A DNA stretch of 64,000 bases, taken from positions 19,627-83,626 of the forward strand of contig CAZPBC010000002.1 of assembly GCA_964584775.1 (NCBI GenBank). The letters are read 5' to 3'. The translations under genes and the position numbers were made by a program. The notes beneath the pieces are model-generated. The model saw only the letters and a program-made list of their open reading frames with translations. It ran no database searches and was not told the DNA's origin. The DNA comes from an uncultured bacterium. GTDB taxonomy: Bacteria > Chlamydiota > Chlamydiia > Chlamydiales > SLFE01. Shown piece after piece: positions 48,687 to 53,747 of the stretch. Numbering within the stretch: position 1 is the stretch's first letter; each line of letters begins with the position of its first letter.

Positions 48687-50104
48687 GAGGCTTTGACCTC
48701 CTTTTTCTTCGGTGAGAGGATCCAGGTGTTAAAGATATTCACCACAAAAAGGATGTTCGCGAAGAAGACAATGATCCCACCTAGACTCCGTAGCATCCAC
48801 CAAGGGCGCATCTCTGCCACCGTTTGTAAGAAAGGCAAAAGGCTCAAGTTCTCTTGGAACTGGGCATAGGTCACACCGGTCGCCCAGCTTGCCCACATCA
48901 ATCCCTGTAGATACCCCCCAAGCCAAAGAGAGAGGATGAAGGGGACGCTGCCAAAAAGGTTGAGCGTAAAAGACCAGTTCGCAAGACGCTCTGACCAGAG
49001 GGGGCGTTTCGTGATTGCAGGGATGATGTAGTAGATACCCGCCATCGCAAAGTAGGTGAAGGTTCCATAGAGAGCGATGTGACTATGTCCAATGATCCAG
49101 TCGGTTTTAGAAGTGATCTCATTCACATTCCTCAGTGCCATCAGCGATCCCTGGACCGAGGTGATAAGGTAAAAAATATTGCCCATCACTATGAAGCGCA
49201 CAGAGGCGTTTTGAGTGTACTCCTTCCACTTGGGTTGCACGGTCGCAAAAATATTCAGGACAACGGTCCAAACAGGGATAAAGAGCCAGACAGAAAAGAT
49301 GATTGAAACCGTCTGGAGCCATTGAGAAATGGGGCCGTGGATGATGTGATGCGCTCCGACCCAACCGTAGATAAAAGCAATTGACCAGAAGCCAATCATT
49401 GAAAGTTTATGGCTGTAGATCGGAACCCCTGCAACTTTGGGAAGAAAGTAGTAGGCCGTGGCGAGTCCCAGGGGAGTGAAGATGAGTCCGACGAGGTTGT
49501 GGACATAGAAAAACTCTGCGTTCACACGGGAGAGGCCGTAGGGGAGAAACTCAAGACTAAAGCCACCCACCCAAAAAACGACTGCAGCCCAGACAATGGC
49601 TCCTAGGATATACCAGAGAGAGACATACATCTTCTCGATCTTGCGGATGGCAACAGTCATATAAATGTTGATTCCAAAAAGGATCCAGGCGAGGACAATC
49701 AGCGGCTTGACAGGGATCCAAGAGACGAACATCGGCGTCTCGTCATACTCCCATCCATAGTTGGTTCCAAAGGGATAGGAAAACTGGCTGATGATGAGTG
49801 AAGGCCACCAAATTCCGATCGCCGTGTAGGCCAATTTTTTACTCCAGAGCTTCACTCCCGTCAGCCTTTGCACCATAAAAAGGGCGAGCCCTAGGTTGGC
49901 AGAGAGGAGCCAGAGGAGAACCACTCCGTTGACATGCACAGGACGCAAGCGTCCAAAGCTGATGTACTCTCCTGCAAAGTAGTCTGGGTAGAGGAATCCG
50001 TTAATCGAGATAAAGATCCCCACAAACATGCCGATCAACATAAAGCAGGTCGAGGGGAGGACCAGCCAGAGAGAAGGGCCATCTTCAAATCGACTCTTTT
50101 CCAT
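48683..50104 (-). CDS. ccoN: cbb3-type haem-copper oxidase catalytic subunit CcoN
   Basis: 473 aa, about 12 TM helices. Histidine ligand contexts GAHHIIHGP, WIIGHSHIALYGTF. 20-nt overlap with the upstream cytochrome gene. Confidence 0.88.
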   Translation of the reverse strand: MEKSRFEDGPSLWLVLPSTCFMLIGMFVGIFISINGFLYPDYFAGEYISFGRLRPVHVNGVVLLWLLSANLGLALFMVQRLTGVKLWSKKLAYTAIGIWWPSLIISQFSYPFGTNYGWEYDETPMFVSWIPVKPLIVLAWILFGINIYMTVAIRKIEKMYVSLWYILGAIVWAAVVFWVGGFSLEFLPYGLSRVNAEFFYVHNLVGLIFTPLGLATAYYFLPKVAGVPIYSHKLSMIGFWSIAFIYGWVGAHHIIHGPISQWLQTVSIIFSVWLFIPVWTVVLNIFATVQPKWKEYTQNASVRFIVMGNIFYLITSVQGSLMALRNVNEITSKTDWIIGHSHIALYGTFTYFAMAGIYYIIPAITKRPLWSERLANWSFTLNLFGSVPFILSLWLGGYLQGLMWASWATGVTYAQFQENLSLLPFLQTVAEMRPWWMLRSLGGIIVFFANILFVVNIFNTWILSPKKKEVKAS

Positions 50105-53100: not shown

Positions 53101-53747
53101 GACTCTTCGTAGGTGCCGTCGAAGACCGGTCCGTGGGCACGGTCGGTCACAAGCCCTCGGCCATTCCCTCCGTGACAGACAGTACAGCCATACTCTTCGA
53201 CTGGGTGGAACTCAAACGGCCGCGTCTCTTTGCCCATGAGGGGGTGCATCTGAAGGACTTGACTCATCTCGTAGGTGTGCTCACCGACATGTGCCACCTT
53301 GAGCTCAGCAAGAGCGTCTGCCTCCGACTCATTTCCCTGCTCGCGGAGCAAAGCGATCTTCTCATCGAGTTTTGTGAAGATGTAGTCGGGATTCGGGACT
53401 TTTTTCGGAACGCCGTTGTCATCCAAGATCAACTCCCCGTTGATATCGACGTCGAGCTTGGTCGGGGAGAAGTGTTCTAGTTCTAGGGCGACATGGCAAG
53501 AGATGCAACGGTCGATCGTTTCAGGGCCTTTGTCCTCTTTCGGAATGACAATCTGCTTGATACCAAATTTAAAGGGCGCAGGGGGTCTTCCAGTGTAGGA
53601 GGAGCGGAACTCCTCAAGCTGGACGTAGGCTTTCTGGTAGATCTTATATTCAGGGAAGAGCTCGCGGTAGATGACGACCGTAAAGATTGCTGTCCCGGCG
53701 ATAGCAAGGGCGATCAGCAAAACTTGATAGAGTTCCCCACGTCTCAT
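50085..53747 (-). CDS. Membrane-anchored heptahaem c-type cytochrome with a C-terminal coiled-coil (1220 aa)
   Basis: N-terminal TM (LYQVLLIALAIAGTAIFTVVIY). Seven CXXCH motifs: CISCH, CTVCH, CAQCH, CYACH, CAACH, CAQCH, CAVCH. FixO/FixP-like class-I modules (GPRPNWSGIYRSDQWLMEHFWNPQ..SIMP; GGPMPPWG; TSMVAWG). The last ~200 aa are heptad-rich. Confidence 0.88.
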   Translation of the reverse strand: MRRGELYQVLLIALAIAGTAIFTVVIYRELFPEYKIYQKAYVQLEEFRSSYTGRPPAPFKFGIKQIVIPKEDKGPETIDRCISCHVALELEHFSPTKLDVDINGELILDDNGVPKKVPNPDYIFTKLDEKIALLREQGNESEADALAELKVAHVGEHTYEMSQVLQMHPLMGKETRPFEFHPVEEYGCTVCHGGNGRGLVTDRAHGPVFDGTYEESFQGPEPEFLEKDPNGNDPLFSKAYNHKPGHRLLFQTDPLLVGGAIEARCAQCHDPSEKELALPDAVEVKREYDALIELLSLKKWIEDQGVQSVLTKLEEKQKDYTLSEEGLEKLEANIAYLRRALVSAEGDVKKETLILDRVNRDLLSLVGSEETLNKLEASFDQNPDLTLEQVTSIVESGSIHSRQKPRPVSDVNRLTKSYQRGEELFVSQACYACHRITGFARGGVGPELTLEGLSYPWFMKESIVWPQADLKTSTMPNYKLDHQEVEDLMAFLLAQRGQKRSRSDFDEAATNRAWEEGRLKREWEKPLSSDQIRDVRSTMMIFATEGCAACHRLEGFDSQWGVEGHDDQQWFRELFPEEALGSTIVRSLEENAAEIDAKIQKVGEPGLLEKMQEKYPGNMESFYSNFRYASRAKNHELTGEELEAWKARVERVLKVYITEFGFGRLVGPRPNWSGIYRSDQWLMEHFWNPQALIARSIMPVFPFDNTKFLALTYMLDRLAVENRNSLRKVWKERGFHPENAYQQLCAQCHGENLKGNGPVSEWIYPVPKNLNNPIFLRSLTKQKAYESIRYGVAGGPMPPWGEVAEDKPFDMGGPVLTDDEIEKLVNWIFSRLPGRHSEQEVPRWDYTPEDVLRELDESGVQIDQKESRASFFPLGAILGVVAQPISKLSTSELFDEVESPRAGEERKYYYIKDKYYTKKNLEEGEAYFKLNCAVCHGNDADGAGERAEVMEDAKPRMLINLPWVESRDDLRLLRAINYGVTGTSMVAWGNETTPLQRLQLVMYIRSLTKTKRNHEKLKSSLYETYQTKIWEIEAQKAKEVGEIRRLEEEISKLQESRRELEKESFKQGAIASGYQDSFQKEVSLRKELNALKEREAELNEKSATIKKEKQLSENLGNLLFTQFGSGTLLQNYLVILKESDPLKREALEKALIAEIRKEKADLEQRLEVAKAKIPSQEEREEIEDLQTANDATEEVLRTAISTFAQIQKLNQEIGNGKESI

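Follow-up and report, generated by a model that had tools for sequence, protein, structure and literature searches.

A conserved seven-haem cytochrome c with a helical-bundle tail is encoded between cytochrome bc-type and cbb3-type oxidase genes in environmental chlamydiae

Introduction

Examples exist in which complex III or complex IV carries fused cytochrome c domains. In the obligate actinobacterial bcc–aa3 supercomplex, the built-in domains of the dihaem QcrC replace a diffusible carrier, and an engineered, active fusion of cytochrome c1 to CcoP in Rhodobacter capsulatus hard-wires quinol oxidation to O2 reduction (PMC7876108). A second set of comparators is provided by the anammox-type Rieske/cytochrome b complexes of Kuenenia stuttgartiensis, which include the octahaem Kustd1485, modelled with long helices wrapping its complex, and the hexahaem Kuste4573 (PMC12954380). 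In environmental chlamydiae, a cytochrome bc complex is inferred to have been acquired beside an ancestral cbb3 oxidase (PMC9816063), and we found no description of a chlamydial bc–cbb3 connection in the literature searched. Here we describe a chlamydial operon in which a heptahaem cytochrome c is encoded between the two sets of genes, and compare it with these systems.

Results

Organization of the operon

The heptahaem gene lies in a run of reverse-strand genes within the window, by which we mean the whole 64-kb stretch of DNA analysed (Table 1). In 81 loci the genes are ordered GltD-like flavoprotein, ccoS, Rieske, cytochrome b, heptahaem, ccoN, ccoO and small membrane proteins, and the heptahaem gene stands upstream of ccoN, in this same order, in 70/70 loci with a ccoN match. 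Its start codon directly adjoins the stop codon of the cytochrome b gene, and its 3' end overlaps the start of ccoN by 20 nt. The ccoS/fixS-like ORF, which probably starts further inside its maximal coordinates, overlaps the flavoprotein gene at the 3' end of the latter; ccoS was found in 67 of the 81 loci, and a FixS-like gene occupies the same place in Estrella. Since ccoS is a cbb3 maturation gene and lies upstream of the Rieske gene, the bc and cbb3 halves of the operon are interleaved. Two terminator-like hairpins from a consensus scan suggest a bounded transcription unit of ~10.6 kb. The operon holds no ccoP-like gene, and no other CXXCH-rich ORF is found within the window.

The partner genes encode recognizable respiratory subunits. 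The flavoprotein has no transmembrane helix in a hydropathy scan, and the best PDB match of the Rieske protein is Kuenenia Kustd1480 (9rk3). The His- and Tyr-containing haem/CuB-site motifs of CcoN align with those of Pseudomonas stutzeri CcoN, with a residue-by-residue ligand assignment that we take to be that of the P. stutzeri structure. All 60 of 60 CcoO homologues fall within 369–474 residues, and the small ORFs that end the operon are conserved in 27/81 (53 residues) and 61/81 (87 residues) loci.

Table 1. Features of the heptahaem operon, with coordinates in the 64-kb window and residue numbers (aa) of the heptahaem protein
Feature	Coordinates	Strand	Basis or remark
Stronger terminator-like hairpin, before the flavoprotein gene	57637-57670	(-)	Consensus scan only
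GltD-like NAD(P)-binding Fe–S flavoprotein, 609 aa	55727..57556	(-)	First gene of the operon
Small ccoS/fixS-like ORF	55590..55808	(-)	Maximal ORF coordinates
Rieske [2Fe-2S] protein, Tat signal, 169 aa	55077..55586	(-)	
Cytochrome b, 441 aa	53748..55073	(-)	b6-like part fused to a subunit-IV-like part
Heptahaem cytochrome c gene	50085..53747	(-)	1220 aa plus stop
N-terminal transmembrane anchor, about aa 6-28	53664..53732	(-)	Hydropathy scan; helix in the model of relative P0048
Trihaem module, aa ~60-290, CXXCH at 81/188/265	52878..53570	(-)	Weak collinear BLAST to haems 1-3 of the anammox-type octahaem
Helical linker domain, haem 3 to haem 4, aa ~291-410	52518..52877	(-)	
Haem-4 FixO-type class-I domain, CYACH at aa 430	52233..52517	(-)	Met475 invariant, in STMP
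Haem-5 CcoO/FixO-like domain, CAACH at aa 547	51573..52175	(-)	Pfam FixO, aa 666-722
Haem-6 class-I domain, CAQCH at aa 745	51243..51572	(-)	Met797 invariant, in GxPMPPWG
Haem-7 class-I, CcoP-like domain, CAVCH at aa 932	50718..51017	(-)	Met985; partial TIGR00782 ccoP match
C-terminal haem-free helical-bundle domain, aa ~1011-1220	50088..50717	(-)	Predicted helices, AlphaFold2 models
CcoN, cbb3-type oxidase catalytic subunit	48683..50104	(-)	
CcoO, 413 aa	47445..48686	(-)	Anchor helix, ~200-aa extra periplasmic region, FixO domain with CFYCH
Two small membrane-protein ORFs, operon end	47058..47455	(-)	53 aa at 47294-47455; 87 aa at 47058-47321
Terminator-like hairpin, just past the last ORF	47026..47044	(-)	Consensus scan only

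Haem motifs and domain layout

The protein carries seven CXXCH motifs (residues 81, 188, 265, 430, 547, 745 and 932), the first of which, CISCH, is encoded at 53493-53507. Every one of its 14 cysteines lies inside these motifs, and 20,000 composition-preserving shuffles of the protein gave a mean of 0.002 CXXCH and a maximum of 1. A hydropathy scan finds one hydrophobic helix, at the N terminus, and none after it, and the anchor region has no cysteine available for a lipobox; the protein beyond the anchor would be periplasmic. His168, His181, His205, Met475, Met698 and Met797 are invariant in the family, and Met985 is nearly so. These residues suit axial ligation and, with CXXCH motifs, candidate distal ligands and an export anchor all present, we predict a c-type cytochrome. 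Pfam returns three Cytochrom_C/Cytochrome_CBB3 stretches and a FixO fragment (34 bits against a 29.6-bit cut-off), and NCBIfam a partial ccoP match at residues 914–1008. A first-pass annotation had read seven CXXCH motifs with CISCH in this position, a single N-terminal transmembrane helix, FixO-like and FixP-like modules and a haem-free helical C-terminal segment from the DNA, and the motif count, the hydropathy scan, the domain annotation and the cysteine-free, predicted all-helical last ~210 residues agree with that description.

The domain order is an anchor, a trihaem module, a variable helical linker, two FixO-type His/Met domains, two paralogous CcoP-like class-I domains and the helical-bundle tail. 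The three invariant histidines, which fall in the trihaem module, are candidate distal ligands for presumed bis-His haems. The helical linker spans 34–220 residues between the haem-3 and haem-4 motifs across the family and is nearly missing in some relatives. The haem-4 and haem-5 domains match one another (hhalign probability 94%), and the latter, which is interrupted by an insertion of ~110 residues and carries the GPRPNW...SIMPVFPF pattern with Met698, also matches the CcoO of the same operon (86.7%). The haem-6 and haem-7 domains are paralogues (98.4%) that match PF13442/PF00034, and the PDB sequence matches of the haem-7 domain comprise Kustc0457, ActE, CcoP and QcrC.

Conservation in the family

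The identical 1220-residue protein is present on 12 independent contigs, and more than 100 relatives with 42–56% identity, labelled Chlamydiota almost without exception, retain the anchor, all seven haems and a tail that measures roughly 190–270 residues. Among the first 60 homologues, 59 have seven CXXCH motifs, the exception (P0010) having six and also lacking the N-terminal helix, and all 60 have a long haem-free tail of 187–238 residues, as counted from 90 residues beyond the last CXXCH. Likewise, 22 of 23 full-length representatives at 50% identity have seven motifs; the exception, P0168 (1036 residues), has four. There are 139 relatives among GTDB species representatives, and among the best 80 of these nearly all with a taxon name are Chlamydiota. 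The seven-haem cytochrome is a genuine gene, conserved across environmental chlamydiae.

Fold and distribution of the C-terminal tail

Cys is absent from the last ~210 residues, and neither His nor Met is conserved there. Scored against shuffles with our own simple heptad scorer, residues 1022–1072, 1074–1115 and 1142–1209 exceed the 99th percentile, and helices are predicted at about residues 994–1067, 1074–1123, 1127–1137, 1141–1171 and 1176–1214. Two AlphaFold2 monomer models, of the 1220-residue protein (mean pLDDT 84.7, pTM 0.82) and of the relative P0048 (mean pLDDT 87.2, pTM 0.85), give the tail the same helix–loop topology, an antiparallel bundle, with modelled helices of 74/50/11/31/39 and 57/50/12/29/50 residues, respectively. 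In most relatives an extra β-hairpin is inserted midway, and it is also seen in the model of P0048. The mean frequency of the top residue per column is 0.38 in the tail versus 0.71–0.79 in the haem domains; hydrophobic periodicity and loop positions, including Gly/Pro, are kept across the family. The tail is thus modelled as an up-down helical bundle of ~210–240 residues with four to five helices and short loops and without a long rod, in which hydrophobic core and loop positions appear conserved and the surface fast-evolving.

The first-pass annotation had called this region a ~200-residue coiled coil, unexpected on a periplasmic cytochrome, that might mediate oligomerization. The helical, heptad-rich character stands; the single coil gives way to a folded-back bundle, and Kustd1485, with the long helices modelled around its complex (PMC12954380), offers a precedent. 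An intermolecular coil, through which the tail would oligomerize heptahaem subunits or itself tether the bc complex to the cbb3 oxidase, is in our estimation unlikely. The tail is always present, its heptad periodicity exceeds the shuffle background and its charged-residue content is high (median 0.33). Furthermore, bc complexes are dimers, so that two tails would sit close together, and the monomer models are compatible with bundle-to-bundle pairing across the dimer axis. Against this, the heptad-like segments are only 42–68 residues long and interrupted, unlike those of a parallel rod, and helices of 30–74 residues are split by short loops with conserved Gly/Pro. Both monomer models fold the tail back intramolecularly with confidence (tail blocks mostly pLDDT 83–96), and the mid-tail β-hairpin of most relatives is ill-suited to a continuous rod.

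A search with the tail among 1.84 billion representative proteins gave only 133 matches, and the tail is C-terminal in every full-length match and every inspected fragment, bar a few weak ones (E ≥ 5e-7). By these sequence comparisons, the tail is specific to the heptahaem family. The weak matches, which fall in multiple stretches, resemble generic coiled-coil matches.

Comparison with CcoP, CcoO and QcrC

Like CcoP (FixP), the heptahaem protein has two tandem paralogous class-I His/Met domains and is encoded beside the CcoO/CcoN genes; the ccoP model and CcoP PDB chains find their best partial match in its haem-7 domain, and the dihaem units of both have the same presumed job, delivery of electrons to the CcoO haem. 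The match to TIGR00782 covers profile positions 196–282 and reaches 48.6 bits, far below the 179.95-bit cut-off. True CcoP has its own helix beside CcoN, whereas here the dihaem unit is embedded in a 1220-residue protein whose only helix precedes haem 6 by >700 residues and lies about 700–900 residues before the CcoP-like domains. In addition, the heptahaem gene is upstream of ccoN, whereas ccoP typically follows ccoO/ccoQ. The likeness to CcoO (FixO) resides in the GPxL...W..H..NP....S.MP motif of the haem-5 domain. The Pfam FixO match takes in only 57 of 219 profile positions (102–158), and the score for TIGR00781 (CcoO), 27.5 bits, falls far short of the 200.65 cut-off; unlike CcoO, the haem-5 domain is split by its insertion, and a genuine CcoO is encoded separately downstream. 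The Pfam, NCBIfam and PDB matches of the heptahaem protein include neither the cytochrome c1 nor the cytochrome f family. QcrC is marginally similar in sequence (E about 0.002–0.06) and has two haems and an aa3 oxidase, as compared with seven haems and a cbb3 oxidase here; the R. capsulatus fusion is artificial, with a cytoplasmic-side join through helices.

Comparison with anammox-type Rieske/cytochrome b complexes

The genes that accompany the chlamydial cytochrome are of the same kinds as in the anammox-type systems, for a Rieske protein, for cytochrome b of the b6-like type and for an NAD(P)-binding Fe–S flavoprotein of the cytoplasm. These partner subunits are homologous between the two complexes, and the flavoprotein shares 33% identity along its whole length with an anammox-type counterpart (L082; E 5e-94). 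Both cytochromes begin with an N-terminal anchor helix and a compact trihaem module followed by FixO-type His/Met domains. The haem-4 domain matches the anammox-type octahaem with an hhalign probability of 98.5% (E 2.9e-15), in an alignment of only 126 columns around haems 4–5, and for haems 1–3 the alignment is collinear but weak (BLAST E 2e-5 and 0.008). On alignment, haem 1 to haem 5 are collinear with the octahaem, with significant homology around haems 4–5; for haems 6–7 and the tail, the matched part of the octahaem offers no equivalent.

Several features set the chlamydial system apart. It has seven haems as compared with eight or six, and adds the paralogous CcoP-like dihaem unit. Long helices occur in both proteins, mid-protein and C-terminal in the chlamydial one and between the anchor and haem 1 in the anammox one, and are not homologous. 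Unlike that of the anammox type, the chlamydial cytochrome b includes a fused subunit-IV-like part, and the CxGG haem-cn motif is missing from it. Finally, the chlamydial operon runs on into ccoN and ccoO, unlike the anammox one. Because the anammox-type octahaem, which has no cbb3 link, gives the same kinds of FixO/Cytochrome_CBB3 Pfam matches, these matches are unspecific for oxidase ancestry.

Discussion

The heptahaem protein probably wires the Rieske/cytochrome b complex to the cbb3 oxidase. In the fuller reading, which we favour with some reserve, the seven haems would lead as a wire from the Rieske centre to CcoO/CcoN and so make a hard-wired quinol oxidase, and the tail would be a structural arm. 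The anchor and the trihaem end would be seated on the cytochrome b dimer, where the mobile Rieske head would reduce the trihaem end. Electrons would then pass through the His/Met domains, the seven haems serving as a fixed periplasmic wire, and from the last dihaem unit (haems 6–7) to the CcoO haem and on to CcoN. The heptahaem protein would in this way stand in for cytochrome c1/f, a diffusible cytochrome c and CcoP in a hard-wired quinol:O2 oxidoreductase, by analogy a natural counterpart of the actinobacterial bcc–aa3 supercomplex and of the engineered c1–CcoP fusion. Against this reading, the three haems presumed to be bis-His might form low-potential steps beyond the Rieske centre, the only anchor helix is about 700–900 residues away from the CcoP-like domains, and the FixO/Cytochrome_CBB3 matches are generic. 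A tie between the bc complex and the cbb3 oxidase through the heptahaem protein, as genetic linkage suggests, fits the invariant gene order and the missing ccoP; the tethering of the two complexes proposed in the first-pass annotation agrees with such a tie at the protein level, and the tail, to which it had been assigned, is not itself implicated.

It is distinctly less probable that the heptahaem protein serves Rieske/cytochrome b alone, with diffusible or other acceptors and with the cbb3 genes merely co-regulated. The collinearity with the anammox-type octahaem, whose complex has no oxidase link, and the generic nature of the oxidase-like Pfam matches are in keeping with such a role. CcoN and CcoO alone are the conserved core of cbb3 oxidases. 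Set against these points is the position of the heptahaem gene, which in the window adjoins cytochrome b and overlaps ccoN and which keeps the same order of neighbours in all 70 loci with a ccoN match, as well as the interleaving of the two halves by ccoS upstream of Rieske. No other cytochrome c, CcoO aside, is found in the operon or in a CXXCH scan of the window, and haems 6–7 form an extra dihaem unit beyond the matched part of the octahaem.

Within the hard-wired reading, the tail would most likely act as a stiff arm or a docking element, holding the distal haem domains in place against partner subunits. We regard as improbable a periplasmic spacer outside electron transfer, reaching for example to peptidoglycan or to the cysteine-rich outer-membrane complex. 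A periplasmic, elongated, cofactor-free domain with a fast-evolving surface would suit such a contact, and Foldseek with the tail finds generic long-bundle resemblances only, the periplasmic domain of PilJ included; in the tail, however, neither net charge nor any surface motif is conserved, the heptahaem loci are without a consistent envelope-gene neighbour, and whole-chain pTM values of 0.82–0.85 suggest a defined position of the tail relative to the haem domains. We reject an artefact, in which a frameshift or mis-assembly (a fusion that the first-pass annotation had itself considered) joined two genes or the tail is untranslated, as having next to no probability: short "N-terminal-only" relatives are present in databases, but the two examined are a contig-end truncation and a locus in an assembly with every gene fragmented, whereas the identical ORF recurs on the 12 contigs, the architecture is conserved in >100 chlamydial homologues with the tail in one frame in 60/60 close ones and likewise in 22 of 23 full-length representatives, the other five frames across the tail region hold 4–11 stop codons, and the hydrophobic periodicity of the tail is conserved at the protein level.

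One conserved seven-haem protein encoded between both complexes suggests a natural, genetically fused quinol oxidase, to which the engineered c1–CcoP fusion, itself of service in structural work, is a parallel; the tail alone is a modest curiosity, a lineage-specific structural domain. A further-reaching and rather doubtful possibility is that the nine-gene operon encodes one machine, an anammox-type Rieske/cytochrome b complex with a high-potential branch wired to cbb3 by way of the heptahaem protein and a low-potential branch leading to the flavoprotein. The latter would run through the b haems, perhaps with an extra inter-monomer haem b on the conserved "SIFRH" histidine, and would link the reduction of NAD(P)+ to quinol oxidation by O2, or work in reverse; the tail would lock the oxidase onto the complex. 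If true, this would be an aerobic version of the electron bifurcation that has been proposed, and never demonstrated, for anammox bacteria. Among the products of the chlamydial operon is the NAD(P) oxidoreductase subunit by which the enigmatic anammox Rieske/cytochrome b complexes are defined, so that an unexplained module is here paired with a known, strongly exergonic acceptor reaction, a pairing that could ease reasoning on, and testing of, the proposed bifurcation to NAD(P)H.

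Architecture of the heptahaem cytochrome

Translation of the heptahaem gene yields 1220 residues in which the CXXCH motif occurs exactly seven times (residues 81, 188, 265, 430, 547, 745, and 932), the first being the CISCH encoded at 53493-53507, as the first-pass annotation had it. All 14 cysteines sit inside these seven motifs, and shuffling the protein's own composition 20,000 times gives a mean of 0.002 motifs and a maximum of one. A hydropathy scan detects a single hydrophobic helix, at the N terminus, in agreement with the one transmembrane helix read from the sequence earlier. 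The FixO- and FixP-like modules also proposed there are borne out by Pfam, which recognizes three class-I cytochrome stretches (Cytochrom_C/Cytochrome_CBB3) and a FixO fragment at residues 666-722 that exceeds the gathering score, and by partial, subthreshold matches to the NCBIfam ccoP and ccoO models; the QcrC model is matched in the same way.

Domain parts (Table) were defined from an alignment of 109 family members (A1) and from AlphaFold2 models of two proteins: the window protein (residues 21-1220; mean pLDDT 84.7, pTM 0.82) and P0048, a relative without the linker that is 51% identical in the alignment (mean pLDDT 87.2, pTM 0.85). Both are confident predictions. We infer bis-His ligation in the trihaem module. 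The helical linker that separates haem 3 from haem 4 can be as short as about 34 residues or as long as about 220 in different relatives. Profile comparison identifies the haem-6 and haem-7 domains as paralogues (98.4% probability) and the haem-4 and haem-5 domains as related (94%), with the haem-5 domain also resembling the operon's own CcoO (87%).

Table. Parts of the heptahaem cytochrome, genes of its operon, and other features of the window
Feature	Position	Strand	Remarks
Terminator-like hairpin	57637-57670	-	14-bp stem; just upstream of flavoprotein gene; consensus scan only
GltD-like NAD(P)-binding Fe-S flavoprotein	55727-57556	-	609 aa; opens operon
ccoS/fixS-like small ORF	55590-55808	-	between flavoprotein and Rieske genes; overlaps 3' end of flavoprotein gene
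Rieske protein	55077-55586	-	Tat-dependent
Cytochrome b	53748-55073	-	b6-like part fused to subunit-IV-like part
Heptahaem cytochrome	50085-53747	-	1220 aa
Heptahaem: anchor helix			N terminus; from A1 and AlphaFold2 models
Heptahaem: trihaem module			haems 1-3; three extra invariant histidines (H168, H181, H205)
Heptahaem: helical linker	52518-52877	-	variable length; almost missing in some relatives
Heptahaem: haem-4 domain			FixO-type His/Met; Met475
Heptahaem: haem-5 domain			FixO-type His/Met; Met698; ~110-aa insertion
Heptahaem: haem-6 domain			class-I; Met797
Heptahaem: haem-7 domain			class-I; Met985
Heptahaem: tail	50088-50717	-	last part of protein
CcoN	48683-50104	-	
CcoO	47445-48686	-	413 aa
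Small single-helix membrane protein	47294-47455	-	53 aa; end of operon
Small single-helix membrane protein	47058-47321	-	87 aa; end of operon
Terminator-like hairpin	47026-47044	-	6-bp stem; just downstream of last ORF; consensus scan only
LRR_6 (RNI-like) repeat protein	45603-46880	-	425 aa; immediately downstream of operon
RasGEF-domain protein	44094-45596	+	500 aa; immediately downstream of operon
Tandem array of about eight paralogous ORFs	29272-38010	-	~330 aa each
PARG-domain protein	13438-17763	-	1441 aa; microbial-type PARG catalytic domain and weak macro-domain match

Operon and genomic setting

The heptahaem gene is the fifth in a nine-gene minus-strand unit. No gap separates its start codon from the stop codon of cytochrome b, and at the 3' end it shares 20 nt with ccoN; because terminator-like hairpins flank the unit, the arrangement would fit a single ~10.6-kb transcript. 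The same gene order is found in Estrella and in essentially all 81 loci that lie on a long enough contig, among which tblastn recovers the flavoprotein in 69, ccoS in 67, the Rieske protein in 70, cytochrome b in 77, ccoN in 70, and ccoO in 64; the 87-aa small protein is kept in 61 of the 81. The flavoprotein has no transmembrane helix in a hydropathy scan. CcoN matches the Pseudomonas stutzeri cbb3 structure (E = 1.5e-56) and keeps the His-containing and Tyr-containing haem/CuB-site motifs, in which the individual ligand residues are presumably those of the P. stutzeri enzyme. CcoO is typically ~200 to 240 residues long; the protein encoded here carries ~200 extra periplasmic residues between its anchor helix and its FixO domain, and the 60 homologues from the loci retrieved are all long as well (369-474 residues). 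The operon has no ccoP-like gene, the 64-kb window has no further CXXCH-rich ORF, and Rfam returns no RNA family in the window. Reconstructions of these chlamydiae list a bc complex of the PetBD type and a CcoN/O cbb3 oxidase, in a part of the published account that makes no mention of a heptahaem cytochrome (PMC9816063).

Elsewhere in the window, three of three ORFs checked in the tandem array match the porin-like outer-membrane family Legionella_OMP (PF05150; E = 1e-25 to 1e-32). RasGEF and LRR_6 domains are typically eukaryotic, and the two proteins that carry them may be effectors.

Conservation of the single-frame architecture

The identical 1220-aa protein is found on 12 contigs from several sources, flanked each time by cytochrome b and ccoN. 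A database search retrieved 655 relatives, the best 120 of which are nearly all 1100 to 1430 residues long, and share 42 to 52% full-length identity with the protein by BLASTP (45-56% in a MAFFT alignment). Nearly all that bear a taxon name are Chlamydiota (Estrella lausannensis, Protochlamydia phocaeensis, Parachlamydia, Waddliaceae, and Simkania). Seven CXXCH motifs and the N-terminal helix are present in 59 of 60 relatives inspected, the exception (P0010) having six motifs and no detected helix, and a haem-free tail of 187 to 238 residues, counted from 90 residues past the last CXXCH, is present in all 60. Each of the five other reading frames across the tail region contains 4 to 11 stop codons. 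The possibility raised in the first-pass annotation that a mis-assembly or frameshift had fused two genes is refuted by the 12 identical contigs, the family-wide architecture, and these stops.

Naturally split versions of the gene were also considered and rejected, since the two "N-terminal-only" proteins examined trace to a truncation at a contig end and to an assembly locus in which all genes are fragmented. In the latter (L084, on ENA contig_3817) the genes of the whole operon lie in pieces across 3489-14790, the breaks probably reflecting long-read indel errors, and a YafQ-toxin-like gene and two small ORFs lie between the cytochrome and ccoN. Such loci give rise to the spurious "short" family entries seen in databases. 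A k-mer search for distant relatives of the trihaem module returned family fragments only.

The tail is predicted to be a helical bundle

The last ~210 residues lack cysteine, and a crude heptad scorer places residues 1022-1072, 1074-1115, and 1142-1209 above the 99th percentile of shuffles, together with a mid-protein stretch (residues 304-357). The first-pass description of the tail as haem-free and heptad-rich therefore holds, but the fold-back models and the loops argue against a ~200-residue coiled-coil rod. Sequence conservation is poor (mean top-residue frequency of 0.38 per column; the haem domains reach 0.71-0.79). Across the family, hydrophobic positions nonetheless recur every three to four residues, and the positions of Gly/Pro-containing loops are conserved. 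In both AlphaFold2 models the tail adopts an up-down bundle fold, with pLDDT mostly 83 to 96. The window protein has predicted helices of about 74, 50, 11+31, and 39 residues, the first of which runs on from the final helix of the haem-7 domain; in P0048, helices of 57, 50, and 12 residues are followed by a β-hairpin and then by helices of 29 and 50 residues. This hairpin, an ~18-residue "N..RY.FK.G.L.F" insert, is found in the tails of most relatives and is missing from the window protein.

A profile built from 27 tails and searched against 1.84 billion representative proteins gave 133 matches only. Five of these are weak, multistretch matches of the kind that generic coiled coils give; leaving them aside, the tail lies at the C terminus in the 23 full-length matches, and the shorter matches inspected are fragments of the heptahaem family, so the tail is not a widespread domain. 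Foldseek returned generic long-bundle resemblances and no specific relative of the tail in the PDB. A role in cofactor binding was rejected, as no tail alignment column holds His, Met, Cys, or Trp at a frequency of at least 40% and the net charge varies from -14 to +7 across the family. From the periodicity, the conserved loops, the two models, and the family-only profile matches, the "coiled coil" is therefore best described as a lineage-specific, structurally constrained helical-bundle domain as modeled, perhaps 6 to 8 nm long judging from helix lengths.

Relatives outside the Chlamydiae

The best solved relative of the Rieske protein is Kustd1480 of Kuenenia stuttgartiensis (9rk3), the sequence of which retrieved a Kuenenia-like locus (L082) encoding a Rieske protein, cytochrome b6, a 566-aa NAD(P) oxidoreductase, subunit IV, and a 945-aa octahaem cytochrome c. 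The oxidoreductase is 33% identical to the chlamydial flavoprotein over the full length (E = 5e-94). The octahaem protein matches the heptahaem family around haems 4 and 5 (hhalign probability of 98.5%) and shows weak collinear BLAST matches over haems 1-3 and the segment that follows the anchor. Because it too gives Cytochrome_CBB3 matches and a subthreshold FixO match, such matches are not proof of an origin from oxidase subunits. About 180 residues judged helical from sequence lie between its anchor and haem 1, but homology of these long N-terminal helices to the chlamydial tail was rejected (hhalign probability of 0.07%).

In a published cytochrome b phylogeny, Parachlamydia and Waddlia fall together with complexes 1 and 2 of Kuenenia (PMC3509893). 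Within 69 chlamydial cytochromes b, the segment "RSIFRH.YPNNDVDRSE.VFKNFFLH.HPVKCHK" (residues 25-70) is at least 90% conserved, and its His30, which lines up with the histidine in the "FRH" motif of the Kuenenia-like b6, may correspond to the predicted ligand of the extra intermonomer haem b in Kuenenia models. TLGLG stands in place of the CxGG haem-cn motif. With a GltD-like NAD(P)-binding Fe-S flavoprotein encoded by the first gene of the operon, the chlamydial complex belongs to the class proposed, though never demonstrated, to bifurcate electrons to NAD(P)+.

Proposed electron route and alternatives

The domain architecture, its conservation, the operon, and the homologies are shown above; the electron route is inferred. 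In the scheme that we favor, the anchor and trihaem end would rest on the dimer of cytochrome b and take up electrons from the Rieske head, in the way modeled for anammox complexes; electrons would pass onward through the His/Met domains to the terminal dihaem unit, which would take CcoP's place and reduce the CcoO haem. One polypeptide would thereby stand in for cytochrome c1/f, a soluble carrier, and CcoP, giving a hard-wired quinol oxidase. In its logic such an oxidase would compare with the cytochromes that are fused in Gram-positive bacteria and with an engineered, active c1-CcoP fusion (PMC7876108). Several features speak against a cytochrome serving the bc complex only, with the oxidase genes merely coregulated: ccoS is interleaved, codons are coupled, there is an extra dihaem unit, and neither the operon nor the 64-kb window encodes another cytochrome c.

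As to the tail in such a hard-wired oxidase, our guess is a rigid arm that would hold the distal domains against a partner, be it the ~200-residue extension of CcoO (a possible docking site), CcoN, or a second copy of the heptahaem protein. Bundle-to-bundle dimerization of tails is possible. An oligomerizing coiled coil, as first suggested, is disfavored by the conservation of the loops, by the hairpin insert, and by two models that fold back with confidence, and nothing positive speaks for a role as an envelope spacer.

The heptahaem protein is annotated only as a "c-type cytochrome," and our literature searches found no published description of it. That the operon as a whole would make up a form of the anammox-type complex that is NAD(P)-linked, possibly bifurcating, and driven by O2 strikes us as an improbable reading of these genes; what speaks for it is homology, the conserved His30 of cytochrome b included. 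The heptahaem protein combines two known ideas, the multihaem subunits of Rieske/cytochrome b complexes and the built-in cytochromes of III-IV supercomplexes; its arrangement with a cbb3 oxidase is new, and so is its private tail domain.
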